Positions 26,536 through 51,277 of a stretch of 64,000 nucleotides of DNA are shown in pieces. Each line of letters begins with the position of its first letter. Within the stretch, counting starts at the first letter, position 1. Source of the DNA: Alistipes shahii (GTDB lineage Bacteria > Bacillota_I > Bacilli_A > RFN20 > CAG-826); the NCBI GenBank assembly GCA_963598795.1, contig CAVBUY010000003.1, forward strand, positions 31,198-95,197, in the 5' to 3' direction. The notes beneath the pieces are model-generated. The model was not told the origin of the DNA and did no database searches. It worked only from the letters and a program-made list of their open reading frames with translations. Both the position numbers and the translations under genes were made by a program.

Positions 26536-26613
26536 TTCTTTCTATATGTCGATTGATAAACTCTTTAAGTCAAAAGGTTTTCGCGTAGTTTGAAAGTCGC
26601 TTGTTTTTGATGC

Positions 26614-27993
26614 CTACTTATACAAATCTTCGAGCGTAATGAAAATATACGGGTATTCTTTTTCGATCTTGAATCCGTTTTTGGAAATAAACCCGTATTG
26701 AGTGGGCGTTAAGGTAGTTTTTCTCACCTGTTCCAATTCTTCTTTTATCGTTTCGTCGGTTACTGGCTCATTGGTGAATTTGCACTCGAAGAAGACGTAT
26801 CCGTTTTGGTTTCTTCCGACGATATCGAATTGGCCGTTTTTCTTCTCTTTTGGGTTATCGTACCAATATGTGCCAATATTTAGAAGCGGCGGGTTTATAT
26901 GGCCAATCTTATTTTCTTTTATTAAGTATTGCTTGCCTATGGTTTCGAAGACCGCGGGAACCGTCTTTGATTCGAAGTCGCTTTTGATGAAGAAATCATA
27001 GAAATCCGTGTCATTCAAAACGCTGTGGGCGGACTCGTTGCGGTAAATGTAGTTGTAATAGAAACTGACGCAGAAGTCGGAAATGCGATATCCGGCTTTT
27101 TGTTTGTTCTTCGCATCGTTTATGGGATAAACATAATCGATGAGATCCATAGATATAAGCTTTTGGAGGATAGCAGACAACGCCGCTGATGACCCAATAT
27201 GCGATTCGGAGAGAATGTCGTTGAAGTGGAAGGCTCCATAGGCAATGGACTCGAATACGGCGTTTGCATTGTTTATTTTGCGCAATTCGCTTTTTAGATA
27301 GATTTCCAAAAAGTCTTTCAATCCCGAAAATTGACCGCTCAAGATATTGATGATATTGTCTTTGACTGAAAGGCTGTCATCGATTTGCGCGTTGTAAAAC
27401 GGCACGCCTCCAAAGGCGGCATATAGTTTTACCTTATCTTCATTATTGAATGATGGGTAGAATTTCGACGCGTCATAATAATCCATCTGCTTCAGCAACA
27501 TGGAATTGGCGAATCTCATATACAAAGGGCTGTCTTGGTTTTGGATCTCTTCCATCGTTGAAACTGAACTGCCCAAAAGGAAAAATTTCAAATTGGTTTT
27601 CATCGCGTACTTGTCGATTACCTCTTGAAGCTTGGAATCGCATCCGTCGATTAAGCCTCGGATATACGGGTATTCATCGATGACGAAATATAGGCTTTTG
27701 TCTGAAGCGTAATCGAAGATGAAATCAATCGCCTCCAAGAAATGGTCAAAATGGAGATATTTGATGTTTAATTCGCGTTTTATTAATTCGGTGATGAGAT
27801 TTGTATTGTCTTTTTCGGAGGACTCTTTGCATTGATAAATAATGAAAGGCACGCCCTTATTCATTAAACAATGCTTTACAAGCTCAGTCTTCCCCATGCG
27901 TCTTCTACCATAGATCAAACAGCCTTGGTAACCTTTCTTTTTTAAGATGCCGTCTATGGCTTTTTGTTCAAACTCTCTGCCAATGAAATTCAT
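26614..27993 (-). CDS. AAA ATPase of the archaeal-ATPase/DUF234 type
   Basis: Walker A YGRRRMGKTELV, Walker B FVIDEYPY. The C-terminal part has a short nuclease-like/DUF234 pattern (GQFDIVG...FFECKF). Confidence 0.7.
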   Translation of the reverse strand: MNFIGREFEQKAIDGILKKKGYQGCLIYGRRRMGKTELVKHCLMNKGVPFIIYQCKESSEKDNTNLITELIKRELNIKYLHFDHFLEAIDFIFDYASDKSLYFVIDEYPYIRGLIDGCDSKLQEVIDKYAMKTNLKFFLLGSSVSTMEEIQNQDSPLYMRFANSMLLKQMDYYDASKFYPSFNNEDKVKLYAAFGGVPFYNAQIDDSLSVKDNIINILSGQFSGLKDFLEIYLKSELRKINNANAVFESIAYGAFHFNDILSESHIGSSAALSAILQKLISMDLIDYVYPINDAKNKQKAGYRISDFCVSFYYNYIYRNESAHSVLNDTDFYDFFIKSDFESKTVPAVFETIGKQYLIKENKIGHINPPLLNIGTYWYDNPKEKKNGQFDIVGRNQNGYVFFECKFTNEPVTDETIKEELEQVRKTTLTPTQYGFISKNGFKIEKEYPYIFITLEDLYK

Positions 27994-28444
27994 ATGAACC
28001 CTCCTAAAACTTAGTCATTTATGATTTAGTCAATTATGAATTACTAAAATATTAAGGCAGTAGAAGATGGAAGTCAATTCAATATATAGTCGTGGGAATA
28101 CGCACTAAGCGAAACAAGACTGGCGATTGTTTTGAAACAAAAGCACAAGCCGTACAAGGCAAGAGAAAATTGTTAAATCAGTAATTGCCAACTACGAGAC
28201 GCTTCTTTAGTCATGTAAAAACAAAAAAGGAAAAGGCCTTTGCTTCAGGCAATGGAGATTTAGCAAAAAGCTTTATTGGATGCGGCTTCAGATTGATATA
28301 TCAAATCCTAAAAAAGTCCATGTATCAACGAAATCTGCGAAGGTAAAAAAAGCGGTTATGTTGGATTTCGCGGCCGCACTGTGGTTAGCGCGTAATTTAA
28401 CTCCGAAAAAGGCAACCACTAAAATCTGGTTTCTTGCGCCTTGA

Positions 28445-28460
28445 CTCTCTCTCTCTCTCT
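28445..28460. repeat. (CT)8 dinucleotide microsatellite
   Basis: ctctctctctctctct read directly. It sits between TTGACT (28441-28446) and TAGAAT (28460-28465). Confidence 0.95.
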
Positions 28461-28493
28461 AGAATGGATTCGTAAAATATTGAAGGCAAAACT

Positions 28494-29072
28494 GTGGCTG
28501 AGAATTTTAGCAAACAAGAAAACTACAAGGGTCTAATTAAAAGATATGACCAAGCCTTTAAACGTGGGTTTTATTTGGAGACGGTGGCAATAACTTATGC
28601 GTTAATAGAAGATAGATTGACATCTGCTTTGAACAAATTGGAGATTGTATCTGTCGATATCGAAGGCAAGCCAAGGCTCAAAAGCGTAATTAGCAAATTT
28701 TCGGAGGAAATAGTTGGTAAACGCTACAAAAAAGTCGTTTTGAGAAAAATTACTGACAAATTCTTATTTTTAAAGAGTTGTTTGGAATTTTGCAAAAACG
28801 AAAAATCTCAAATCTTAGAGAAAATACCCGATAAGGCTTTTTTTGAAATTTATAGCAAATGCAAGCGTATAAACGTTGAAAAACATTTCTTTGAAGATTT
28901 CGAGGAATGGAAGAACGAAAGAAATAAATTGGTTCATGATTTGTCGAATTTTAAATCTTCTATTGAAATGAAAGAAACGGCGAAGAGATGCTCCAAAATG
29001 GGCTACAGCCTATTTAGGATATTGGATAATGAAATTTGCCGTAAATTCAGGAAGGGTGGAACAATAAAATAG
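28494..29072 (+). CDS. hypothetical 192-aa alpha-helical protein with HEPN-like RxxxxH motif
   Basis: GTG start with GAAGG 7 nt upstream. ERNKLVHD (R-x4-H) near the C-terminus and a YALIEDRL helix near the N-terminus. Confidence 0.5.
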   Translation: MAENFSKQENYKGLIKRYDQAFKRGFYLETVAITYALIEDRLTSALNKLEIVSVDIEGKPRLKSVISKFSEEIVGKRYKKVVLRKITDKFLFLKSCLEFCKNEKSQILEKIPDKAFFEIYSKCKRINVEKHFFEDFEEWKNERNKLVHDLSNFKSSIEMKETAKRCSKMGYSLFRILDNEICRKFRKGGTIK

Positions 29073-29152
29073 GCGTGTTATACGGGTGATATTAATGTCG
29101 ATGCAGTCGTTAATAAAGGCTACACATTCTGAGAATATAGGGAGTTGCAACA

Positions 29153-30529
29153 ATGAAAAGGAAGATCATGATTTTAAGCATTTTACTAATTGGTTCAATT
29201 GCTCCGACTAGTGGTTGTTCTGATAATGCTCCTTTCGATAGTTCTTCCATTAGCGACACCATTTACGTCGTTACTTTCGATTCTGGCGGCGGAACCTATG
29301 TAGATAGTCAAAATATTGCAAAAGGAGAAAAAATTAAAAAGCCAGAAGACCCCACTAAATCGGGATACACGTTCTTAGGCTGGTATGATTTAAATACCGG
29401 CGAAAAATGGTTTTTTAGTGGAGGGGTTGTGACTGAGAATATCACTCTAACCGCCAAATGGAACGCAAACAAAAACAGTTTGTCCGTTACTAGCGAAGAC
29501 AAATCCAAAGGAACCGTATCGATAGTATCTGGCGTTGGATATTCGGATGAAACGATAACTGTTACGGCCACCCCGGTTGGCGATTGCATTTTCAATAGCT
29601 GGTTTGACGGAAACGGCAAGGTCAGCGATAAAACAACTTATTCCTTTACTATGCCAACAAGCGATTACGCCTTGGTTGCTCATTTCTATACAAAAGCGGA
29701 GGTAGATGAAAAAGAAGAGGAACGTAACAAGAAATTAGGCATCATCCCCGCCATCGACGAAACAAATCACACTTTAACCTATGGCTTGTATCCCCAGACT
29801 CACGTCAATGACGATAACACCATCGCCGCCTTAGATGCCTTGGCTTCCCCGGAAAGCAACGGCTGGTATTTATACAACGACGAATATTACGCCAAAACAT
29901 CAGCGAATCCACATTATTCTAGTTATACGTTCAACGATGGCACCACAATCGTTAAAGACACGACATATTGGTTCAAATGTGAATTAATTGAATGGAAGAT
30001 CCTCTCTTCTGGCGACGGCGCGTATTCCGTCGTCTCGTCCTTATTGCTCGATACCCATCGATATAATGAATATTACGGCGGTACCAAAAATGGTTATTAC
30101 GCAAATAATTATTCAAATTCCGAGATAAGAAGCTGGCTGAACGGCGAGTTCTATTCGTCCGCGTTCGCTCTTGGTGATCGTTATATCCAAACCACAACAG
30201 TCGACAACTCGCCCTCGACGACGAATTCCCCGAGTAACAAATACGCATGCGAAAACACCGAGGACAAAGTCTATCTCCTCAGCTATCAAGATTATATGAA
30301 CGAGTTTTATTTCGTTGACAATGCATCGAGGAAGTGCGAGGTCACCGACTGGGCCAAAGCCAACAAGGCATATTGCTATGATGGTTTCGGTATCTATTGG
30401 ACCCGTTCGCCTAACTCCTACAATTCCAGCAACGCGTGGGACGTGCGCTCCGGTGGCGGCCTCGGCAGCAGCGGCGTCGGCGACTCCTACGACGGCGTCC
30501 GCCCCAGCCTTTCCTTGAAGATTTCGTAG
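29153..30529 (+). CDS. DGR target: surface lipoprotein with two Listeria-Bacteroides (Flg_new) repeats and a C-terminal variable C-type-lectin/DUF6273-like domain
   Basis: Signal peptide plus lipobox (SIAPTSGC). VTFDSGGG...GYTFLGWYD repeat signature. C-terminus YWTRSPNS...NAWDV...GVRPSLSL carries the VR. AGGGAG RBS. Confidence 0.85.
   Translation: MKRKIMILSILLIGSIAPTSGCSDNAPFDSSSISDTIYVVTFDSGGGTYVDSQNIAKGEKIKKPEDPTKSGYTFLGWYDLNTGEKWFFSGGVVTENITLTAKWNANKNSLSVTSEDKSKGTVSIVSGVGYSDETITVTATPVGDCIFNSWFDGNGKVSDKTTYSFTMPTSDYALVAHFYTKAEVDEKEEERNKKLGIIPAIDETNHTLTYGLYPQTHVNDDNTIAALDALASPESNGWYLYNDEYYAKTSANPHYSSYTFNDGTTIVKDTTYWFKCELIEWKILSSGDGAYSVVSSLLLDTHRYNEYYGGTKNGYYANNYSNSEIRSWLNGEFYSSAFALGDRYIQTTTVDNSPSTTNSPSNKYACENTEDKVYLLSYQDYMNEFYFVDNASRKCEVTDWAKANKAYCYDGFGIYWTRSPNSYNSSNAWDVRSGGGLGSSGVGDSYDGVRPSLSLKIS
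30404..30514 (+). repeat. DGR variable repeat (VR)
   Basis: 111 bp aligning without gaps to 31039-31149 (offset 635). All 19 mismatches lie opposite TR adenines. Confidence 0.9.
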
Positions 30530-30554
30530 CGAAGCGGAGAAACAATCCTCAATC

Positions 30555-30589
30555 GCCTGCCGCCAATCAAAAGCCTTCAGGCGGCAGGC
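30555..30589 (+). other. GC-rich hairpin 40 nt downstream of VR
   Basis: Perfect 10-bp stem gcctgccgcc / ggcggcaggc with a 15-nt loop and no following T-run. Confidence 0.7.
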
Positions 30590-30602
30590 TAACTTCAACG
30601 AC

Positions 30603-30998
30603 ATGAAACAGAGACTAAACGAAAGCAATGAAAGAAAAGAAACCGAATTATTGGTGTTTATGAAAGCAAAGGATTTATCCGCTTACATTTTAAGGGCAAG
30701 CGCCAAATCCCCGGTCAAATACCGATATTCGATCTTAAATTCATTGATACACGAATCGTTGGCCATCATCCAATTGTTGTATGAGGCAAACGATTTGGAC
30801 ATAAAAGACAGAAATAGGCTTATGCTCATAAATCAAGCTAACGCAAAATTGAAATTGATCGATTTCCTCTCGTCTTTGTCAACAGACGTCTTATGTTTCA
30901 CCAAGCACCAACATGAGGTGATCTTGGAAAAAATAGGTGTTTGCTCTAAGTACTTGGCGGGCTATAAAAACGTCTGCAAAAAGGCTTTGGCAATATAG
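30603..30998 (+). CDS. avd: DGR accessory variability determinant (Avd-like four-helix-bundle protein)
   Basis: 131 aa and helical, with ELLVFMKAKDLSAYIL...KYRYSILNSLIHESLAI resembling the 23S-rRNA-IVS/Avd family. Canonical position between VR and TR. Confidence 0.72.
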   Translation: MKQRLNESNERKETELLVFMKAKDLSAYILRASAKSPVKYRYSILNSLIHESLAIIQLLYEANDLDIKDRNRLMLINQANAKLKLIDFLSSLSTDVLCFTKHQHEVILEKIGVCSKYLAGYKNVCKKALAI

Positions 30999-31038
30999 GG
31001 ATTCGTTATAGGGTGCGCAATTGCGCTTGTATCGTGCA

Positions 31039-31149
31039 CGTTCGCCTAACTCCAACAATTCCAACAACGCGTGGAACGTGAACTCCGATGGCGACCTCAA
31101 CAACAACAACGTCAACAACTCCAACAACGGCGTCCGCCCCAGACTTTCC
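31039..31149 (+). repeat. DGR template repeat (TR)
   Basis: 34 adenines and 14 AAC triplets in the VR reading frame. Non-coding (the 60-aa ORF across it is an artefact). May extend 2 nt 5' to 31037. Confidence 0.9.
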
Positions 31150-31287
31150 CGAATAGGGCTTTTGCCCCTTAAGGAATCAGCCAATCAGGCGGTTGGCTCA
31201 TAAGGAAAGGGAACGATACCCCTAATCGCACTATATGCGATGAAACAAGCATAAGCGAGGAAGACCGCAAAAAGACGTTTTTCCTCC

Positions 31288-32319
31288 ATGATCCTTATGC
31301 TTTTTATTATGAATTACGAAGAAACGTTCACTTTCAATAATTTGCTAAAAGCCCATAAAAAAGTCAGGAAGGGCAAGCTTTTCAAAAGAGAGGTCATGGA
31401 ATTCGAGCTTGAGAAATCCGCCAACTTATATTCTCTCTACGAAGAACTTAATAAAGGGACTTATAAAGTCTCGCCTTATCGAACCTTCTATATCTACGAA
31501 CCGAAGAAGAGAAGAGTGGACGCCACGCCTTACAAAGACAGAATCGTCCAAAATTGCTTGGTGGATAACTATCTATACCCCTTATTGGAAAAGAGGCTCA
31601 TTTACGACAACGCCGCCTGTCGAAAGGGCAAAGGCACGGATTTCGCCAGAAAAAGGCTGAGGGAATTTTTGTTAAAGGAATATAAAAAGAACGGAACGTC
31701 GTTCTACGTTTTCATATTCGACATCCATCATTATTTCGAATCGATAGACCACGACGTTTTGAAAAAGAAGATGGAAAAATTGATAAAAGACGAGAAAATT
31801 CTATCTTTCATCTACAACATCATCGATTCTTTCAATTACGAAATGGGAAAAGGCGTTCCTTTAGGCAATCAGACCAGCCAATGCTTCGCTTTATATTATC
31901 TGGACAAATTCGACAGGATCATCAAAGAAAAATACAAAATAAAGCATTATTCGAGATATGTGGATGATGGAGTCATATTCTCTTCTGACAAAGAGATATT
32001 GATAAGACTCAAAGAAGACCTCGAAAAAGAAACAAAGAATCTAAATTTGGAATTCAATGACTCCAAGTGCGCGATATATCCGATTAAGCAAGGCGTAACT
32101 TATCTTGGATTCACCTATCGCCTTGGCGAAAACGGAAAGATAATCAGCAAGATTTCCAAAAAGAAAAAGAGAAGGCTGATGAGGCATATGAATAAACACA
32201 TGCTAGGAAAAGAGTCGCTCATTTGTTATCGAAACTACCTTAGGATGCGTTCCTCAAATGGAAGCCTCATAAATAAGATAAATCGCCTTATAAAGAGCCA
32301 AAATAATCTCTCTAATTAG
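31288..32319 (+). CDS. DGR reverse transcriptase (alternative start 31309)
   Basis: RT motifs YEPKKRRVDATPYKDRIVQ, AACRKGKG, FDIHHYFESIDH, the DGR-diagnostic PLGNQTSQCFALYYL, and catalytic YVDD. Confidence 0.9.
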   Translation: MILMLFIMNYEETFTFNNLLKAHKKVRKGKLFKREVMEFELEKSANLYSLYEELNKGTYKVSPYRTFYIYEPKKRRVDATPYKDRIVQNCLVDNYLYPLLEKRLIYDNAACRKGKGTDFARKRLREFLLKEYKKNGTSFYVFIFDIHHYFESIDHDVLKKKMEKLIKDEKILSFIYNIIDSFNYEMGKGVPLGNQTSQCFALYYLDKFDRIIKEKYKIKHYSRYVDDGVIFSSDKEILIRLKEDLEKETKNLNLEFNDSKCAIYPIKQGVTYLGFTYRLGENGKIISKISKKKKRRLMRHMNKHMLGKESLICYRNYLRMRSSNGSLINKINRLIKSQNNLSN

Positions 32320-32374: not shown

Positions 32375-33841
32375 ATGGCAAACGAAATAGCGAAAAAATA
32401 CACGGACGAAATATATCTTTCCAAGTCCCAACTACAAACCGTTTTGAACACCTCTTTGGTGGATGGCTATTGGAAGGAGATAAGAAGCTATCGCGGAGGA
32501 TACGCCCATAGGCTCAACGTGAAGACCTTAAGGAAGAACTTCGAGATGGGCATAGTTCTGACCCCGATTATAGAAGGCAAGATATCCTTGCTTCAAAAGG
32601 AAATGGAAAACCTCATTTCCTCCATAAAAAAGATGAGCATGGAGGAAAAAGATGAGGCGGGACGTCTCCTTTTCTATGAGAACCTCGTTTCTTATAACAA
32701 AATAAAGGGCTTAAATATGTCCGAGGCGGCCCTTAAGCAAGTGGTTTCGGGAAGATATCGCCCATCATCCCCTTCCGACAAAGCTTTGGATTTTTATGAG
32801 GCTTTGTCATATTTTGCCTTAAAAGACGATATATTGCCCCCGAACGAAGACTTCTTGGGCGAAGCTTATTCCAAGTTGCTCAAAAGGGAATTGACTTCCT
32901 TTTACCGCACCTTAGATTTCGACGCTTCCGCCAAATTGGCCGAGCAAAGGGACGAGGATTGCCCTTATGCCCCTTTTGAGAAAATAAGCCTTTATATGGA
33001 AGACTTGTTCTCGGCGTTGGAAAACCAAGAATTCAGCCCTCTCATCCGTTCGTTATTGGCCTTGCATTATATGAACGCCGTAAAGCCGTTTCCTTCCTTT
33101 AACGAAGAATTGTCTTTGCTATTAGCTTTGGACGTATTGGCCGAAACCTATGGCAAAGAGGCTTTCTATATGCCTTTGTTTATCTTATTGGAAGACAACG
33201 AGAAGCATAGCGAAGCCTTATTGGGCGTACGAAGCGGGGATTTCACCTATTTCGTTTTATACGCTTTAGACGTATTGAAAGGCAAATTGTCCCATCTAAA
33301 AGAAGAAATAGACGAAATAATCCTTTCTTCCTTTAGAAAGGAAGCCAATTACGTTTCCAAAGAAGAGGAAAGCTATTTTAACGGCAAAGCCGAGCAAATG
33401 TCTTTCCTCGATAACCCCGAGGAATACGAAAAGAAGGAAGAGCCTCTTATTTCGGAAGTTAAGGAAGAGGCAATAAAGCCCATCTTGAAAAAGAAGGAAC
33501 TGATTAGGCCCGAAAAGGTCAACAAAACGGTGGAAAGGATAGAAGGCGAGATATCCATAAAGATGGAATCGAAGCCTTTAAGCGACAAAGAGGCGAAGGA
33601 ATATACGACCTATTTATTGGAATCCAACCCCTCTTTGAACAAAAAGCAAGCTTCTTTCCTTGCCACCCATTGCACTTTGGGGCATTATTACACCATTCAG
33701 CAATATAAGAAATTCGCCCGTTGCGCCTATGAGACGGCCAGAACCTCCATGGACAAGCTGGCGGATCAATCCTATTACGAGAAGAAACAAATTAAGAACA
33801 AATACGTCTACACCCCCATATCCACCAACGGGAAACGCTAA
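32375..33841 (+). CDS. Fic-fold-like protein with degenerate active-site motif and C-terminal winged-helix
   Basis: ALHYMNAVKPFPSFNEELSLLLA aligns to the Fic core lH...IHPFxDGNGRxxRLL, but His, Gly-Asn-Gly and both Arg are replaced. The C-terminus YETARTSMDKLADQSYYEKK...YVYTP is wHTH-like. Confidence 0.4.
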   Translation: MANEIAKKYTDEIYLSKSQLQTVLNTSLVDGYWKEIRSYRGGYAHRLNVKTLRKNFEMGIVLTPIIEGKISLLQKEMENLISSIKKMSMEEKDEAGRLLFYENLVSYNKIKGLNMSEAALKQVVSGRYRPSSPSDKALDFYEALSYFALKDDILPPNEDFLGEAYSKLLKRELTSFYRTLDFDASAKLAEQRDEDCPYAPFEKISLYMEDLFSALENQEFSPLIRSLLALHYMNAVKPFPSFNEELSLLLALDVLAETYGKEAFYMPLFILLEDNEKHSEALLGVRSGDFTYFVLYALDVLKGKLSHLKEEIDEIILSSFRKEANYVSKEEESYFNGKAEQMSFLDNPEEYEKKEEPLISEVKEEAIKPILKKKELIRPEKVNKTVERIEGEISIKMESKPLSDKEAKEYTTYLLESNPSLNKKQASFLATHCTLGHYYTIQQYKKFARCAYETARTSMDKLADQSYYEKKQIKNKYVYTPISTNGKR

Positions 33842-33853
33842 AAGGAGATAAAT

Positions 33854-34240
33854 ATGAAACCCAACATCTTGGCAGTCACCGATAATCCTATAATCTTGGT
33901 CCTTATTTTACTCGCCGTCTTCGGCGTCATAGTCTTAGGGGTCATATTGATCAAAAAATACGTCCCGGCCTTTAAAAACACCGACACCCTCAAATCCGAG
34001 AAGGAAATCGCCGAAGAAGAAGTCAACCGCTTGGTGGTGGATGTCGATGAAGGGCTAAAGAAGAAAGAAGACAAAGATAAGCCCAGTGAAGAAGAGGCTT
34101 TGCGTTACGAGATGAACCGCATCTTGGAAGACGTCCCGGAAGATAAGAAAAAAGAAGAAAAAACCGAAGAAAAGACCGAAATAGTCTTAACCAAGGAAAC
34201 CAAAGAAGAGATCGAAAAGGACAACGAGAAAGAAATCTGA
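33854..34240 (+). CDS. single-pass membrane protein with Glu/Lys-rich tail
   Basis: One TM helix (IILVLILLAVFGVIVLGVILI) then a charged low-complexity tail. AAGGAG RBS. Stop overlaps the hemW start (TGATG). Confidence 0.55.
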   Translation: MKPNILAVTDNPIILVLILLAVFGVIVLGVILIKKYVPAFKNTDTLKSEKEIAEEEVNRLVVDVDEGLKKKEDKDKPSEEEALRYEMNRILEDVPEDKKKEEKTEEKTEIVLTKETKEEIEKDNEKEI

Positions 34241-35824: not shown

Positions 35825-35884
35825 CACATGCCAGTTGTATGCATTTTGTAGACAACTGAAATAGGCCAGGGTATCATCTTCGTG

Positions 35885-36739
35885 ATGACAAAACATTCGA
35901 TCAGATATTTTCTAAACAATGAAGTACGCGCCATTTGGGACGATAAAGAGAACAAATGGTGGTATTCCGCCGTCGATGTGATTTCGATAATAACGGATTC
36001 CGATAATCCACGCATCTATTGGAATGCGCTGAAGAAAAGGCATCCGGAGCTTACTGAGTTTTGCAGACAGCTGAAACTCTACGCGGATGATGGCAAACGA
36101 TACTTGTCCGACGTTATTAACGAAGATGGCATCAACAGGCTCCGTTTTATCATTCATAAATCCAAAAATCCCGAGTTCGAAAAATGGATGGTAGGCGGTT
36201 TGGACCCAATCGATGAACGAAGCAAGAAGAAGGCCTATGAGCTATATAAAACGCATTTGGCCGATGAAGACGAAGTCGGAAAAACCGTATCTCTTGAGAA
36301 AATACACGCTTATTTGTTTGAGGGCCTTTATCCATTCGCCGGGCAAATAAGGGAAGCGACGATTTCCAAAGGGGGCTTTGTTTTCGCTAACGGAGATTTT
36401 CTGTCAGACACTTTAAAGAAAGTCGAATCCATGCCGCAAGGCTCATTCGATGAGATAGTGGAGAAATATGTCGAAATGAACATAGCCCATCCATTTATGG
36501 AAGGAAACGGACGCGCAACGAGGATATGGCTCGATTTGATATTCATCAAAGAAATCCATAAATGCGTCGATTGGTCCAAAATCGACAAAGAAGATTATTT
36601 TGAGGCCATGAAAATAAGCTATGTGGACGATAGCAAAATAAAAAGGTTGTTACGAAACGCGCTTACTGACGATATTGGCAACAGAGAATTGTTCATGAAG
36701 GGAATAGATACCTCGTACTATTACGAAGAAGCGGAATAG
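35885..36739 (+). CDS. Fic-domain protein (AMPylase-type) with Bro-N-like N-terminal domain
   Basis: Canonical HPFMEGNGRATR motif. The N-terminal IRYFLNNEVRAIWD..WWYSAVDVISIITDS..PRIYW is Bro-N/antirepressor-like. Confidence 0.8.
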   Translation: MTKHSIRYFLNNEVRAIWDDKENKWWYSAVDVISIITDSDNPRIYWNALKKRHPELTEFCRQLKLYADDGKRYLSDVINEDGINRLRFIIHKSKNPEFEKWMVGGLDPIDERSKKKAYELYKTHLADEDEVGKTVSLEKIHAYLFEGLYPFAGQIREATISKGGFVFANGDFLSDTLKKVESMPQGSFDEIVEKYVEMNIAHPFMEGNGRATRIWLDLIFIKEIHKCVDWSKIDKEDYFEAMKISYVDDSKIKRLLRNALTDDIGNRELFMKGIDTSYYYEEAE

Positions 36740-44932: not shown

Positions 44933-45577
44933 ATGAATATAGCGAAAATGATCGACCACACCATCCTAAATCCGGACGCGAGATTGGAAGATATAAAAAG
45001 GATTTGCAAAGAAGCCAAAGAATATGGCTTCGCTTCGGTATGCATAAACCCGAACTACGTTTCGTTGGCCAAAGAAGAATTAAAAGGGAGCGACGTCAAA
45101 GTCTGCACGGTTATCGGCTTCCCCTTGGGAGCTAACACTGTTTCAACCAAAGCTTTTGAAGCCAAAGAAGCCGTCCTTAATGGAGCGGACGAAATCGATA
45201 TGGTCCAAAATGTGACGATGGCCAAAGAACATGATTGGGATTATATAGAAAAGGAAGTCAAGGCTGTAAAGGACGCCATTGACGGACGTTTGCTCAAAGT
45301 CATCTTGGAAACCTGCTTTTTGAATAAGGACGAGATAAAAGAATCTTCCTTAGCCGCGATTAGAGGTGGGGCGGATTTCGTAAAGACCTCCACGGGATTT
45401 GGCAAAGGTGGAGCCAAAGTCGAAGATATCGAGATAATGCGTAAGGCGGTAGGACCTTCCAAAGGCGTCAAAGCTTCTGGCGGAATCCATAATTATCAAG
45501 AAGCCAAAGCCATGATAGAAGCCGGAGCTAATAGAATCGGCGCCTCCAAATCCATCGAAATAATCAAAGGCGAGTAA
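44933..45577 (+). CDS. deoC: deoxyribose-phosphate aldolase
   Basis: IDHTILNPDA and the Schiff-base Lys context FVKTSTGF. Confidence 0.9.
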   Translation: MNIAKMIDHTILNPDARLEDIKRICKEAKEYGFASVCINPNYVSLAKEELKGSDVKVCTVIGFPLGANTVSTKAFEAKEAVLNGADEIDMVQNVTMAKEHDWDYIEKEVKAVKDAIDGRLLKVILETCFLNKDEIKESSLAAIRGGADFVKTSTGFGKGGAKVEDIEIMRKAVGPSKGVKASGGIHNYQEAKAMIEAGANRIGASKSIEIIKGE

Positions 45578-46602
45578 TGAAAGTCCTTCTTTATTTCGAA
45601 ATGCATGAGGCCTTAAAGACCAGCGGGATAGGAAGGGCGAGGAAACATCAAACCGCCGCCCTTATATCAAACGGGATAGAAGTAACCTACAATCCGAGGG
45701 ATTCTTATGATTTGGCCCACATAAACACTTATGGGACCAATTCCTTTCTCCTTTTGAAGCGTTGTCTTAGAAAAGGGGTGCCGGTGATAGTCCATGGGCA
45801 TTCCACCATCGAGGATTTCAAGGAGAGCTTTTTGGCCTATAAGGCCTTTGAGCCGATTTTTGCTTGCCAAATAAAGAAGATGTATGGGAACGCCCCGATG
45901 ATCATAACCCCCACTCCGCATAGCAAAAGGAATATCGAGAATTACCATCTTTGCTCGAATATAAAAGCCATTTCCAACGGGATAATCCTCGAAGAATACG
46001 CCTATGACCAAAAGAAAGTCGACGATTTCAAAAAGGAATTCGGCATAAAAGACGATGAAAAATTCGTGATGGGCGTTGGATTTCCGTTTGTTCGCAAGGG
46101 ATATGTCGACTTCATGGAAGTGGCTAGGAAATTCCCCGATATCAAATTTATATGGTTTGGGGACCTTCAAAGGATCGCCATGTCTTTGGATATAAAGAAA
46201 GCCATACGAAATAAGCCAAATAACGTCATTCTCCCGGGATATGTGGATGGAAAACTAATCCAAGGCGCGTATTTGTCCGCTTCCTGCATGTTTTTCCCAA
46301 GCTATGAAGAAAACGAAGGCATCGTCGTTTTGGAGGCGTTGGCCTCCAAATGCCCTTTGCTGGTAAGAGAGATAGACACTTTCAATCCCTGGCTCAAAAA
46401 GGACATCGATTGCCGTATGGGCAAAAATAACAAAGATTTCGTAGAGATATTGGATAAATTGCTAAAAGAAGGCGAGGATCCTAAGATTTTGGAAAACGGA
46501 TACCAAGTGGCTAAAGAGCGCTCGATAGAAAAGATTGGCAACCAGCTAAAAGGCACTTATTTGGAAGCGATAGAAGAACAAACCACAAAAACCAAACGTT
46601 AA
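45577..46602 (+). CDS. GT4-family glycosyltransferase (glycolipid-synthase-like)
   Basis: GT-B C-terminal EENEGIVVLEALASKCPLLVR (E-x7-E) motif. Confidence 0.72.
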   Translation: MKVLLYFEMHEALKTSGIGRARKHQTAALISNGIEVTYNPRDSYDLAHINTYGTNSFLLLKRCLRKGVPVIVHGHSTIEDFKESFLAYKAFEPIFACQIKKMYGNAPMIITPTPHSKRNIENYHLCSNIKAISNGIILEEYAYDQKKVDDFKKEFGIKDDEKFVMGVGFPFVRKGYVDFMEVARKFPDIKFIWFGDLQRIAMSLDIKKAIRNKPNNVILPGYVDGKLIQGAYLSASCMFFPSYEENEGIVVLEALASKCPLLVREIDTFNPWLKKDIDCRMGKNNKDFVEILDKLLKEGEDPKILENGYQVAKERSIEKIGNQLKGTYLEAIEEQTTKTKR

Positions 46603-46799: not shown

Positions 46800-48181
46800 A
46801 TGAAGCGCATTTATTTAGACGAAATACTTTCTTGGTATCGAAAAAAAGAAGGAAGGAAACCTTTGGTCATTTGGGGCGCCCGCCAAATCGGGAAAACTTA
46901 CCTCGTCAAAGAAATGTTTGCAAAGAAATATCTCAAGGATTACGTCTATATCGATTTGAAAAAAGACGACAAGGCCGCCTCTTATTTCTCTTCAACGGTA
47001 GACGATGAAAATATCTTTCTTTCATAGAAAGCTGCTATGGAAAAATAATTTCCAATGAGTGTCCACTTATTATAGACGAAGCCCAAACCGTACCCAATGT
47101 CATGACTTCCTTGAAATATTTCAATCAAGATCATCCGGAATTGCCGATTATCGTAACTGGCTCAATGGTTAGGCTCGCCTTATTGCGCTCTGACAAAAAA
47201 GACAGCGATTCAATTTTGTTTCCAGTTGGAAAAATAAATTCGCTATCGATGTTTCCGATGGGGTTTGAAGAATATCTCCTCAACGCAAACGAGAGGATGC
47301 TTTCGAGAATAAAGAAAGCCTATTCTCAAAGAACGCCATTGGAAAAATATGAACACGAGCTTTGCTTGGATTTATTGCATGAATTTCTCTGTGTTGGCGG
47401 ATTGCCGGAAGTTGTAAATGCTTTTTTGAAAAACCGTTCATATGCCGAAGCGAAAGAAATTTTGAACGAACTATACGAAAACTATATTGACGACATGAGC
47501 CTTTATAACATTTCCGACGAAACGATTTTGAAAACTAGAAATATATATAAAAACATATTCGCGCAGCTGACGAAGGAAAACAAGAATTTCAAGATTGCGT
47601 CGATTGAAAGAGGAAAATCCAATCGAGATTATTTTGGGGCGTATGAATGGTTGGATTTATCCCATGTCATTTATCGTAGCAAGCACAAAGATGGAAGGGT
47701 GACTTCGCCTTTGCTGGAAGAAGAGGGAGGATTGTTCAGGCTTTATCTTGCCGATTGTGGATTGTTTGCTACCGAAAGCAATATCCCTCAATCCGATTTC
47801 TTGCTCAAAAATGGACAAAACGAACTTTCCGATGTTTTCTATGAATCTTATGTCGCTGACGAACTGTATTCAAAGGGAATCCCTCTTTATTATTGGACCG
47901 GAAAACAACAGCACGAATTCGAATTTATCGTGGATATTAGAGGAAACATTTGCCCGATTGACGTTAAAAAGAAGAAGGGAACCCTTAATTCACTAAAAGA
48001 TTTTAGAGAACATAATAAAAGAACCACGACGATAAAAATTTCTTCTAATCAATTTGGATATGATAAAGAAAACGATATTTTAACCGTTCCGGTTTATATG
48101 ACTTTTCTATTGGCCAATGACATCAAAGAAGGAAAACTTCCGATTGAAAGAGAATCAAAAATCGACAATTCGTCTAATTGA
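46800..48181 (+). pseudogene. AAA_14/DUF4143-type ATPase, interrupted by a frameshift at about 47007-47011
   Basis: The N-terminal ORF (Walker A GARQIGKT) stops at 47027. The continuation ...KYLSFIESCYGKIISNECPLIIDEAQ... is open in the -1 frame from 47009. The A4 run at 47008-47011 is the junction. Paralog of 49949..51277. Confidence 0.7.
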
Positions 48182-48523: not shown

Positions 48524-49495
48524 TTAAACTAACGATTCATCGTTTTGTCTCTTAAGCGTTCTTTCAACGACCTCATGGGAATCCAACTCTTTCAATTCCC
48601 AGCGTTTTTTATGCAACATATTTAACTGCCTAAGGTTATGAAATAACCGCCCATCCCCGTTTTTCCTATCGCACAACGAATCATAGATAATGAAAGAAAT
48701 ATGCCGATGGTAGGCTTTCTTCCAATATTTAAGGTATGCTGGGTGATATTTCTCCAAATAAGCCCTTTCCGAGGCATATACGCACAAATGATAGAAGGCC
48801 CTGTTATTTCTTTTGATCTTTGTATCCGCCTTGGGATTATCTATCACATAACAATAATAAGGATAAGAAGAACGATAAAAACTTGAGGCATTCAAAAATA
48901 ACGAGGTCATCAAAACGCAGTCTTCGAACATATCTTCTTTTTTGGAAAATATCATCAAAGGGGAAGAGAACAATTCTCTCTTGAAAGCTTTGTTCCAGAG
49001 AAAATGAGGCATCGAAAAGTCTTTGTTCAATTTGTCAAAAGCCTCTTCTTTTCCTAAGACCTTGGCTTTGAAATTCTGGGCGAAAGCTAACCTTTCTTTC
49101 CCAGATTCGGAATAAAAATAAGGGAATATCGTGATGTCCGCTTCATGTTTGTTTATTTCCCTTATTATGTTTTCTATGGCTCTATCGGACGAATAATAAT
49201 CGTCGTTATCGACGAAGGTGATGTATTTTCCCCTGGAGAATTTGACCCCTTCCAACCTGCATATGGCTTTGGCTAAGTTCTCTTCTTTCATAATAATTGA
49301 AACGAAATGGCTATCCTTTTCTATCATTTCCTCACATAGTTTTTTGCATCCTTCCTCCGCGTCCAAATTGATGGAAAGGACTATCTCATATTCCTCATCG
49401 CATTTTTGATTTAGCAAAGAAGACAAGCACTTTTTGAAATATTCTTCCCCCGAATAAACCGGAACTATGATGCTTAAAAAGGGAATAGCGGCCAT
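48524..49495 (-). CDS. GT2-family glycosyltransferase
   Basis: LSIIVPVYSGEEYFKKCLSSLLNQ and DNDDYY (DxD). Confidence 0.8.
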   Translation of the reverse strand: MAAIPFLSIIVPVYSGEEYFKKCLSSLLNQKCDEEYEIVLSINLDAEEGCKKLCEEMIEKDSHFVSIIMKEENLAKAICRLEGVKFSRGKYITFVDNDDYYSSDRAIENIIREINKHEADITIFPYFYSESGKERLAFAQNFKAKVLGKEEAFDKLNKDFSMPHFLWNKAFKRELFSSPLMIFSKKEDMFEDCVLMTSLFLNASSFYRSSYPYYCYVIDNPKADTKIKRNNRAFYHLCVYASERAYLEKYHPAYLKYWKKAYHRHISFIIYDSLCDRKNGDGRLFHNLRQLNMLHKKRWELKELDSHEVVERTLKRQNDESLV

Positions 49496-49948: not shown

Positions 49949-51277
49949 GTGTCGAACATGCTAAAGAGAAAAATCGAAAAGACTTTGGAAAATTGGAAAA
50001 ACACTCCAAATCATAGCCCTTTGATAATCAAAGGCTGCCGTCAATGCGGCAAGACATTTTCGGTTCGCGATTTTGCGAAAAAGAATTACAAGCATGAGGT
50101 TTATATAAATTTTTTGAAGAATCCATCATATGTTTCTATTTTCGATGGATCATTGGAAATCGATAACCTGACGATGATGATGTCCGCTTTGCTTGGATCT
50201 AATGCGATTTTTGAGCCGGGGGAAACGATTATTGTTCTCGATGAGATTCAGGATTGCCCAGAAGCTCGGACTGCGTTGAAGTTTTTTAAGGAAGACGGAC
50301 GATTTGATGTCATAGGAACAGGCTCATTGCTTGGCGTCAAAGGGTATGGAAAACAGCCAAAATCCGTGCCGGTGGGGTCTGAAACGATAATCGAAATGCA
50401 TCCTCTCGATTTCGAGGAATTCTTGTGGGCGAACGATATTTCGCCGCAGATAATCGAAAAATTGAAGGAGTGTTTGGATAACGAAAAGCCCGTTCCACAA
50501 GCGCTTCATGAAAAAATGAGAGAGTTGATGCTCCAATACACAGTTATCGGTGGAATGCCTGAAGTGGTCGATACTTTTGTAAAAACGAAGCAAATAAACG
50601 CAGCATTGTCTTTGCAACGAGATATAGTTCTTTCTTATGAGGATGATATGGTCAAATATGCCGCTGACAGCGACAAGCCATTGATAAAAGAATGCTTTAA
50701 ATCCATTCCCAAGCAGCTAAGCAAGGAGAATAAAAAATTCCAATATTCCGTGGTTAAAAAAGGCGGCAAGGCATCAAGTTTCCGAGGAAGTTTGGAATGG
50801 ATAGAAGACGCCGGCATCATCGTCCGTTGCCACAACTTGAATTTGCCGGAGCTTCCGTTGGATGGCAATGCCATCCCCGATGTTTTCAAAGTGTACATGC
50901 AAGACTCTGGCTTATTTGTCAGCATGCTGGAAGACGGCACGCAATTTGATATCCTTCAAGGCAATTTGTATGGATACAAAGGCGCGATTTTCGAAAATCT
51001 CGTGGCGGACATTTTCACAAAAATGGGCCGAAAACTGTATTATTTCCGCAAAGATTCGGGCCTTGAAGTCGATTTTGTCATTAGATATAAAGGCGAAGCG
51101 ACATTGATTGAAGTCAAAGCGACTACCGGGAATGCCAAAAGCACGTCCACGATTCTTTCCCATCCTGAAAAATATCATGTCAAAAACGCGATTAAGCTAG
51201 GCGATTATAACATCGGAAGAAAAGACAAAATATTGACCATTCCCACATATATGTGCTTTTTGCTCAAAGAATTTTAA
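49949..51277 (+). CDS. AAA_14/DUF4143-type ATPase (intact; start GTG 49949 or ATG 49958)
   Basis: Walker A GCRQCGKT, Walker B VLDEIQ, and a C-terminal DFVIRYKGEATLIEVK nuclease-like/DUF4143 pattern. Confidence 0.75.
   Translation: MSNMLKRKIEKTLENWKNTPNHSPLIIKGCRQCGKTFSVRDFAKKNYKHEVYINFLKNPSYVSIFDGSLEIDNLTMMMSALLGSNAIFEPGETIIVLDEIQDCPEARTALKFFKEDGRFDVIGTGSLLGVKGYGKQPKSVPVGSETIIEMHPLDFEEFLWANDISPQIIEKLKECLDNEKPVPQALHEKMRELMLQYTVIGGMPEVVDTFVKTKQINAALSLQRDIVLSYEDDMVKYAADSDKPLIKECFKSIPKQLSKENKKFQYSVVKKGGKASSFRGSLEWIEDAGIIVRCHNLNLPELPLDGNAIPDVFKVYMQDSGLFVSMLEDGTQFDILQGNLYGYKGAIFENLVADIFTKMGRKLYYFRKDSGLEVDFVIRYKGEATLIEVKATTGNAKSTSTILSHPEKYHVKNAIKLGDYNIGRKDKILTIPTYMCFLLKEF

Follow-up and report, generated by a model that had tools for sequence, protein, structure and literature searches.

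The 64,000-nt stretch of DNA analysed here (positions 31,198 to 95,197 of the forward strand of contig CAVBUY010000003.1, GenBank assembly GCA_963598795.1, Alistipes shahii, GTDB lineage Bacteria; Bacillota_I; Bacilli_A; RFN20; CAG-826; hereafter the window, with position 1 as its first letter) very probably carries a complete, recently active diversity-generating retroelement (DGR) of the Bordetella-phage type, in which a target gene, avd, a template repeat (TR) and a reverse transcriptase (RT) gene follow one another on the chromosome of an uncultured gut Bacilli bacterium. This reading is carried by observations on the locus itself: its anatomy, the adenine bias between TR and the variable repeat (VR) of the target gene, the family memberships of its proteins, covariation in its RNA, and the turnover of VR seen by comparison. 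An earlier note on this DNA had described all four canonical DGR parts in canonical order on one strand, and the open reading frame (ORF) map bears this out: a target ORF at 29153-30529 (458 aa), an Avd-like ORF at 30603-30998 (131 aa), a non-coding gap of 289 nt and an RT ORF at 31288-32319 (343 aa) lie on the + strand. The parts of the element are the following.

29153-30529, + strand: target gene, 458 aa from the first ATG (the database gene call starts 5 codons later and gives 453 aa)
30404-30514, + strand: VR, lying 635 nt before TR (register VR = TR - 635) and covering the final 37 complete codons of the lectin-like domain
30603-30998, + strand: avd, encoding an all-helical accessory protein of 131 aa
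31039-31149, + strand: TR, non-coding, 111 nt with 34 adenines, holding 14 AAC codons and 1 AAT codon in the VR frame
31309-32319, + strand: DGR RT, 336 aa from the conserved start MNYEE, the ORF opening at 31288

The two repeats belong to the sole long direct repeat within 27-34 kb (30395-30514 / 31030-31149). When TR (31039-31149) was aligned with VR (30404-30514), 19 mismatches were found over 111 nt and all 19 fell at TR adenines (from TR to VR, 15 A>G, 2 A>C and 2 A>T), an outcome with a chance probability of ~1.7e-10 given 34 adenines in 111 nt; the TR/VR relationship drawn by the earlier note therefore holds under computational alignment. Its placement of VR in the last ~37 codons of the target is likewise correct, VR corresponding to residues 418-454 of 458 and being followed by a 4-codon tail and the stop codon. 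Eighteen of the mismatches lie at position 1 or 2 of AAC, AAT, GAT or GAC codons (mostly AAC), and the nineteenth is a fixed difference at 31143; the most 3' hypervariable adenine is TR 31126. No stop codon can be created by any substitution at TR adenines, and the theoretical repertoire amounts to ~7e18 proteins. A search of the 64-kb window with the adenine-masked TR pattern returned the TR and VR copies and no others, where chance would give 0. JGI metagenome contigs, scanned twice with exact patterns, yielded no more VR variants of the strain. Separately, a Logan assembly of SRR13434614 (locus L072) that is 100% identical to the window starts at window position 30596, 7 nt upstream of avd and just past a hairpin that follows VR (described below); the break could reflect assembly failure over a heterogeneous VR or over the TR/VR repeat, and coincidence is also possible.

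For the RT, more than 1000 relatives were present in the database, and a set of 72 loci was assembled from 70 RT-homologue loci of species-representative genomes together with L071 and L072; a TR/VR pair was counted as A-biased when at least 80% of its mismatches were adenine-specific. The protein matches Pfam RVT_1 (E 1e-21) and a PHROG phage RT family (318 bits), and its best PDB match (E 5e-36) is to 8ub7_A, the bRT of Bordetella phage (328 aa) solved by cryo-EM, with group II intron RTs at E 3e-14. The motif-4 signature PLGNQTSQ and the YVDD named in the earlier note are both present and align with IGSLTSQ and YMDD of bRT, respectively. At the equivalents of bRT residues R74, I181 and Q187, for which the cryo-EM study reported contacts with the template base and with the deoxynucleoside triphosphate that enters, the window RT has R, L and Q. 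No inactivating lesion was found in avd or the RT gene; both ORFs are intact and YVDD is kept, as that note had supposed. Its RT length of 343 aa corresponds to the ORF at 31288-32319 (+); the ORF stands, and the protein length is corrected to 336 aa, because the start MNYEE (window 31309) is common to all close relatives, and no such conservation holds for the ATG at 31288; the segment 31288-31308 falls within a conserved RNA stem.

A-biased TR/VR pairs were detected in 45 of the 72 loci, and by this operational measure we place the RT in the DGR clade. The contrary idea, that the RT is of another kind (group II intron, retron or defence-type DRT/Abi) and stands beside a chance repeat, has in its favour a series of sub-threshold hidden Markov model matches, to the NCBIfam group II RT/maturase TIGR04416 (122 bits against a cutoff of 300), to Drt2, Drt3a, Drt3b and Drt4 (far below their cutoffs) and to UG-type RTs. 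We consider it extremely improbable: no such match reaches a curated cutoff, the adenine-biased repeat is itself unexpected by chance, and the association of RT with TR/VR recurs in the 45 loci, which contradicts the supposition that such pairs are absent around the closest RT relatives. Membership in the group II introns was rejected on the 122-bit score and on the lack of any Rfam intron match in the window. Membership among defence RTs (retron, DRT/UG or Abi) was rejected because the Drt scores are sub-cutoff, the best PADLOC match is to the generic 'RT' model, and no retron non-coding RNA was found with Rfam in the window.

The target gene encodes the following parts.

29216-29218, + strand: Cys22 of a signal peptide with a lipobox-like TSGC (N-terminus MKRK, hydrophobic stretch, TSGC)
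Target aa 38-102, + strand: Flg_new repeat, internalin-type (Pfam E 7e-18)
Target aa 111-179, + strand: Flg_new_2 repeat (Pfam E 8e-12)
Target aa ~190-458, + strand: DUF6273 C-type-lectin-like domain (Pfam E 8.5e-21)

Clear lipoboxes were seen in many target homologues (LTSC, LAGC, LSGC; L-x-[GS]-C) and N-terminal membrane anchors in others, and it is plausible that the target is a membrane lipoprotein. An AlphaFold model of the C-terminal 269 residues, computed from a 50-sequence alignment, reached a predicted local distance difference test (pLDDT) score of 97.4, and the sole significant PDB match found for it with Foldseek was 9qa6, the Thomasclavelia ramosa IgA peptidase (E 7e-7, 246 aligned columns), whose N-terminal domain is annotated DUF6273 and has been described as C-type-lectin-like, resembling the C-terminal domain of Legionella Lcl. 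The predicted viral structures that match the model are phage DUF6273 proteins, and in phages nd4 and nd12 published work has already identified DUF6273 domains as DGR targets of the C-type-lectin-like kind. On the strength of the model we confidently predict a C-type-lectin-like fold for the C-terminal domain. Variability across 50 homologues is concentrated where TR carries adenines, with an entropy of 3.09 bits at TR-adenine codons, 1.09 bits at other VR codons and 1.30 bits over the rest of the domain.

The target scaffold is uncoupled from the rest of the cassette. When the target region of the window (29153-30403) was compared with positions 1-1599 of L071, the lectin scaffolds proved only 46% identical, and DNA homology (92%) did not begin until 30398, which is six nt short of VR; conversely, scaffolds are more similar (60-62%) in L008 and L010 despite more distant RTs (56-58% identity). 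Target length in related loci ranges from 458 to 1062 aa (L003, L005, L008 and L010 compared). This pattern suggests an exchange of targets through recombination at the VR 5' edge.

The 131-aa Avd-like gene called by the earlier note keeps its assignment: the protein matches the PHROG family 'Avd protein of DGR' (E 6e-12), the Pfam and NCBIfam Avd models recognise it below their cutoffs, and among 14 orthologues taken from related loci, 13 match bAvd (best E 2e-12). By these sequence matches it belongs to the Avd family. A PDB sequence search with Avd gave no match, and a profile built from the 14 orthologues found only 2rld, at E 0.1. An exact-match look-up of the Avd protein returned no entry.

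Activity was assessed by comparison with L071, a contig from ENA in which RT, Avd and the genes downstream share 91-95% identity with their window counterparts. TR differs between the two at 1 of 111 positions and VR at 26 of 111, with 23 of the 26 differences at TR adenines. Since the template has stayed near-constant while VR turned over at adenines, this pattern indicates that VR has been rewritten from TR since the two lineages split, and thus that the element was recently active.

To describe the RNA between avd and RT, two alignments were built, one covering the TR 3' end, the spacer and the RT start from 11 loci (A3) and one running from the avd stop to the RT start from 9 loci (A4). 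Folding of A3 with RNAalifold and explicit pair counting gave 44 pairs, with 94.9% of cells paired against 40-52% when the partners were slid by 1-3 columns; compensatory changes were present at 25 pairs, and 0 of 500 shuffles reached the observed values. RNAalifold over the 9 loci placed the pairs of a Stop duplex between 30996-31000 plus 31003-31007 and 31212-31216 plus 31220-31224, with compensatory changes at 3 of 10 pairs. Rfam returned nothing at the gathering threshold over the whole window, nor at E ≤ 1 on 30500-31400. The predicted elements are as follows.

30996-31007, + strand: upstream strand of the Stop duplex (TAGGG..TCGTT, spanning the avd stop codon), pairing with spacer 31212-31224
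31139-31150, + strand: 3' end of TR, in a predicted duplex with AGGAAAGGG at spacer 31203-31211, the counterpart of the Bordetella template:primer duplex; it contains the fixed A31143
31150-31308, + strand: structured spacer RNA, 159 nt, between TR and RT
31156-31167, + strand: hairpin H1
31179-31198, + strand: hairpin H2, an 8-bp stem with a tetraloop, candidate Avd-binding stem-loop
31225-31241, + strand: hairpin H3
31247-31255/31294-31302, + strand: two-part stem H4, which encloses H5 (31257-31286) and ends 6 nt before the RT start codon

The spacer strand AGGAAAGGG (31203-31211) sits inside the invariant AAAGGGAAC. In the Bordetella DGR RNA (Handa et al.), an Avd-binding stem-loop at Sp3-33 is followed by a TR117-129:Sp47-56 duplex with primer A56, an avd369-379:Sp59-70 Stop duplex ('cPRT Stop'), a stem-loop at Sp71-78 and a bRT-binding stem at Sp95-139. 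The elements in the window occur in the same order, namely a stem-loop after TR, the primer strand, the Stop-duplex strand, a short stem-loop and a long terminal stem.

Two further elements, at the end of VR and beyond it, bear on the polarity of the system.

30493-30514, + strand: GC-rich 3' end of VR (CGGCGTCCGCCCCAG CCTTTCC), resembling an initiation of mutagenic homing (IMH) site, with C30508 fixed opposite TR A31143
30555-30589, + strand: post-VR GC-rich inverted repeat, with stems at 30555-30564 / 30580-30589 and a 15-nt loop AATCAAAAGCCTTCA holding the motif ATCAAAA

TR and VR share a GC-rich 15-mer that is followed by the fixed difference, with A in TR (31143) and C in VR (30508) at 13 of 14 loci spanning 50-100% RT identity. 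A31143 lies inside the TR strand of the TR:spacer duplex, 3' of the last hypervariable adenine, and is not itself hypervariable; being thus fixed across loci, the A31143/C30508 pair appears to behave like an IMH/IMH* polarity mark. The inverted repeat begins 40 nt past VR. Every related locus has one too, in the interval that separates the target stop codon from the start of avd. Its 10-bp stem carries compensatory changes, ATCAAAA is conserved, and the loop measures 13-15 nt among loci; as no T-run comes after it, it is not a typical terminator, and we regard it as a candidate target-recognition hairpin or cruciform. A CAATC/AATCA motif also occurs three times at 30540-30570, before and in this hairpin (ACAATCC, TCAATCG, CCAATCA), and AATCA-type repeats stand at the same place in related loci, where they could be a protein-binding or promoter element for avd.

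The element lies among housekeeping genes. In order, the window holds alaS, a comEC-like gene, holA, fmt, addB/addA, lepA, the island with the DGR, hemW, hrcA-grpE-dnaK-dnaJ, era, recO, glyS, dnaG and sigA, read with the standard genetic code. The arrangement lepA...target-avd-TR-RT-488aa-128aa-hemW is complete in L005, and L003, L004 and L071 carry those parts that their contigs cover, with RT identities of 65-92%; because this arrangement is the same in the four loci, the element is long-resident at the site. The extent of the island was defined from strains that lack it.

26559-32299: variable island between lepA and the 488-aa gene, holding a DUF234/PDC-S27-like ATPase gene (26614-27993, - strand), a 192-aa ORF (28494-29072) and the DGR

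Two conspecifics with identical LepA and 98% DNA identity (L073 and L074) are without 26559-32299 by blastn and have instead a 559-bp filler (L073 7678-8236). Part of this filler matches the 5' end of the DUF234 ATPase gene at 78% identity; homology to the window resumes in the last ~15-20 nt of the RT ORF. The lepA-hemW gap is a strain-variable hotspot, and the absence in L073 and L074 is most simply explained by loss in those strains.

That the DGR is borne by a prophage and diversifies a phage receptor-binding protein, instead of a cellular surface protein, is very unlikely. Gut phages do have DUF6273 targets and related RTs, and known phage RTs reach at most 42% identity to the window RT (41.8% for phage nd12, 39.7% for FP_Brigit); the closest RT relatives (56-92% identity), on the other hand, are in chromosomes of bacterial metagenome-assembled genomes. 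The flanks are lepA, hemW and hrcA-grpE-dnaK-dnaJ, no phage structural genes were found in the window, the position between lepA and hemW is shared by several related species, and the target carries internalin-type repeats behind a signal peptide of the lipoprotein type. Besides the RT and Avd, PHROG matches were obtained only for the target (two weak matches, to families of unknown function) and for a Fic/Bro-N gene outside the island. The window has no tRNA genes and no sign of a tRNA-targeted integrative element.

Several results weigh against a complete and recently active DGR. As L073 and L074 demonstrate, the DGR is an accessory, strain-variable and dispensable trait. The case for activity in the window strain is a comparative one, and no convincing promoter was found for an avd-TR-RT transcript, the promoter and terminator scan giving counts no higher than in shuffles. 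The Avd of the window stays below the curated cutoffs of Pfam bAvd (E 8e-6) and NCBIfam DivGenRetAVD (E 6.6e-10), and a single-sequence AlphaFold model of it was of low confidence (pLDDT 67), its Foldseek matches to the bAvd-like 2gsc, 4dwl and 2rld not being significant. In the RNA, the register of the TR:spacer duplex differs slightly between two RNAalifold runs, which makes the exact pairs uncertain. The post-VR hairpin, with its 13-15-nt loop 40 nt from VR, does not fit the published consensus for DGR target hairpins, which have a 7-10-bp stem and a 4-nt GRNA loop at 4-34 bp from VR (PMC3240598).

Some of these points would be expected of a decayed or silent DGR relic, with parts still recognisable and a target that is no longer diversified in the strain: its absence from 98%-identical strains, the missing promoter and the comparative nature of the activity data, to which a truncated avd in a related locus may be added. 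Against a relic stand the intact ORFs and the catalytic YVDD, the near-unchanged TR beside VR turnover at adenines relative to the 92%-identical L071, and RNA helices kept by compensatory changes; on this balance we judge a relic unlikely. The truncated gene is in L002 (2495-2770), where the avd ORF ends at 91 aa and the rest continues in another frame; this reflects either a frameshift, in which case the DGR may be inactive, or a fault in the assembly.

For a complete and active DGR, we propose the following course. The transcript from the avd 3' end through TR and the 159-nt spacer would fold into a ribonucleoprotein with RT and presumably pentameric Avd, in which TR 31139-31150 would pair with spacer AGGAAAGGG at 31203-31211 and the adjacent 31212-31224 with the avd stop region at 30996-31007. 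By analogy with the Bordetella RNA we infer the priming site, the start and stop points of complementary DNA (cDNA) and the roles of the hairpin and the fixed base. cDNA would be primed in cis from the spacer, at or beside the invariant GGGAA (~31211-31213), would start at about TR 31136-31138 and be copied toward 31039 with misincorporation opposite adenines, and synthesis would end before the upstream duplex (before 31007). The last hypervariable adenine at 31126, and the position of A31143 within the duplex strand that this model leaves uncopied, both fit it. The cDNA would then replace VR from 30404 to ~30501 in the target gene. Polarity would come from the GC-rich IMH-like end, including the fixed A(TR)/C(VR) difference, and probably also from the hairpin at 30555-30589. 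The outcome would be up to ~7e18 variants across 17 residues on the ligand-binding face of the DUF6273 C-type-lectin-like domain, which a probable membrane lipoprotein displays on a pair of Ig-like repeats.

The nearest named relatives of the host alanyl-tRNA synthetase (AlaRS) are from 'Bacilli bacterium' (67%), 'Candidatus Enteromonas sp.' (63%) and 'Mollicutes bacterium' (63%), and one AlaRS relative lies on a 1.63-Mb contig. A reduced gut lineage of the type formerly placed in 'Mollicutes' is a plausible host on these matches. The window has no cell-wall genes that bear either way on a wall-less host, which is at most weakly suggested. Taken jointly, a host in the reduced-genome gut 'Mollicutes-like' Bacilli; a vertically inherited DGR that hypermutates the ligand-binding face of its outermost lectin-like lipoprotein; a clade-specific target-recognition module (GC-rich hairpin, 13-15-nt ATCAAAA loop and a single fixed A/C base) unlike the GRNA-tetraloop cruciform of phage DGRs; and an apparent re-coupling to different scaffolds at the VR 5' edge make up a picture that we offer as speculative and, as a whole, doubtful.

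Other genes near the element were annotated as follows. For the ATPase_2/DUF234 protein of the island (26614-27993, - strand), PADLOC gave a match to PDC-S27, a candidate defence family (E 4e-38). In L018 a copy with 67% identity lies upstream of another DGR target, and the gene may travel with the DGR. The 488-aa (32375-33841) and 128-aa (33854-34240) proteins downstream of RT have no Pfam domain and adjoin hemW with or without the DGR, the former showing a weak match to the SoFic defence model (E 4e-6, residues 197-317). Both were considered as DGR accessories and rejected, as they stay in DGR-less conspecifics and are absent from the DGR loci of more distant relatives. A Bro-N + Fic protein (35882-36739) between hemW and hrcA has a full-length match to PADLOC PDC-S04 (E 2e-120), in a flanking heat-shock neighbourhood that is otherwise conserved. 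Further along, two AAA_14/DUF4143 ATPase genes (47102-48181 and 49949-51277) lie near each other among glycosyltransferase genes (GT4 at 45577-46602; GT2 at 48524-49495, - strand), which may mark another variable region.

In prokaryotes, no system other than DGRs is known to make proteins hypervariable in a programmed way. Many thousands of DGRs have been catalogued, and DGRs with C-type-lectin targets are well documented in gut Bacillota and their phages. The present locus is of interest as a compact, complete DGR in an uncultured gut Bacilli lineage with few tractable handles on its surface biology, and it offers two testable clade-specific features, the large-loop post-VR hairpin and the single fixed TR/VR polarity base. 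Because its RT relatives span 50-92% identity, it also provides covariation-level support, from a distant clade, for the RNA architecture solved in the Bordetella phage element.

The closest likeness is to that element, the DGR of Bordetella phage BPP-1 (mtd - avd - TR - brt), which has the same gene order, an Avd and a VR at the 3' end of a target with a C-type-lectin fold. The two share an RT of ~330 aa with IGxxxSQ/YxDD motifs and R74/I181 equivalents (at an identity of only ~35-40%), a structured spacer of ~140-160 nt after TR with RNA elements in matching order, and a GC-rich IMH-like end at which TR and VR differ. They differ in that the window element is chromosomal and its target is a probable lipoprotein with DUF6273, whereas Mtd is a tail-fibre protein in a phage. 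The BPP-1 hairpin, moreover, has an 8-bp stem and a GAAA loop 4 nt from VR, against a 10-bp stem and a conserved 13-15-nt loop 40 nt away in the window.

Gut-phage DGRs with DUF6273 targets (the 'tentaclins' of nd4/nd12 and those of Faecalibacterium prophages) share the diversified domain and related RTs with the window; their targets are phage receptor-binding proteins, some with VRs near the 5' end, whereas here VR is C-terminal in a cellular lipoprotein encoded between housekeeping genes. Legionella LdtA and Treponema TvpA belong to chromosomal DGRs and are surface lipoproteins with a C-terminal VR in a C-type-lectin fold, built on TvpA or FGE-sulfatase-like scaffolds rather than DUF6273 and found in other host phyla; Foldseek with the target model gave no significant match to solved TvpA/FGE-sulfatase-like structures. 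The N-terminal domain of the T. ramosa IgA peptidase (9qa6) resembles the window target domain in being DUF6273, C-type-lectin-like and from gut Bacillota, yet it is part of a metallopeptidase, is 17% identical and is not known to be DGR-diversified. Since a gut IgA protease has this fold in its N-terminal domain, the ligands may be glycans or proteins of the host. The locus departs from the Bordetella prototype in three respects only, in that it is chromosomal, its target is a probable lipoprotein with DUF6273 and its post-VR hairpin is non-canonical; it is a well-preserved example of a known DGR system, and the DGR concept is left unchanged by it.

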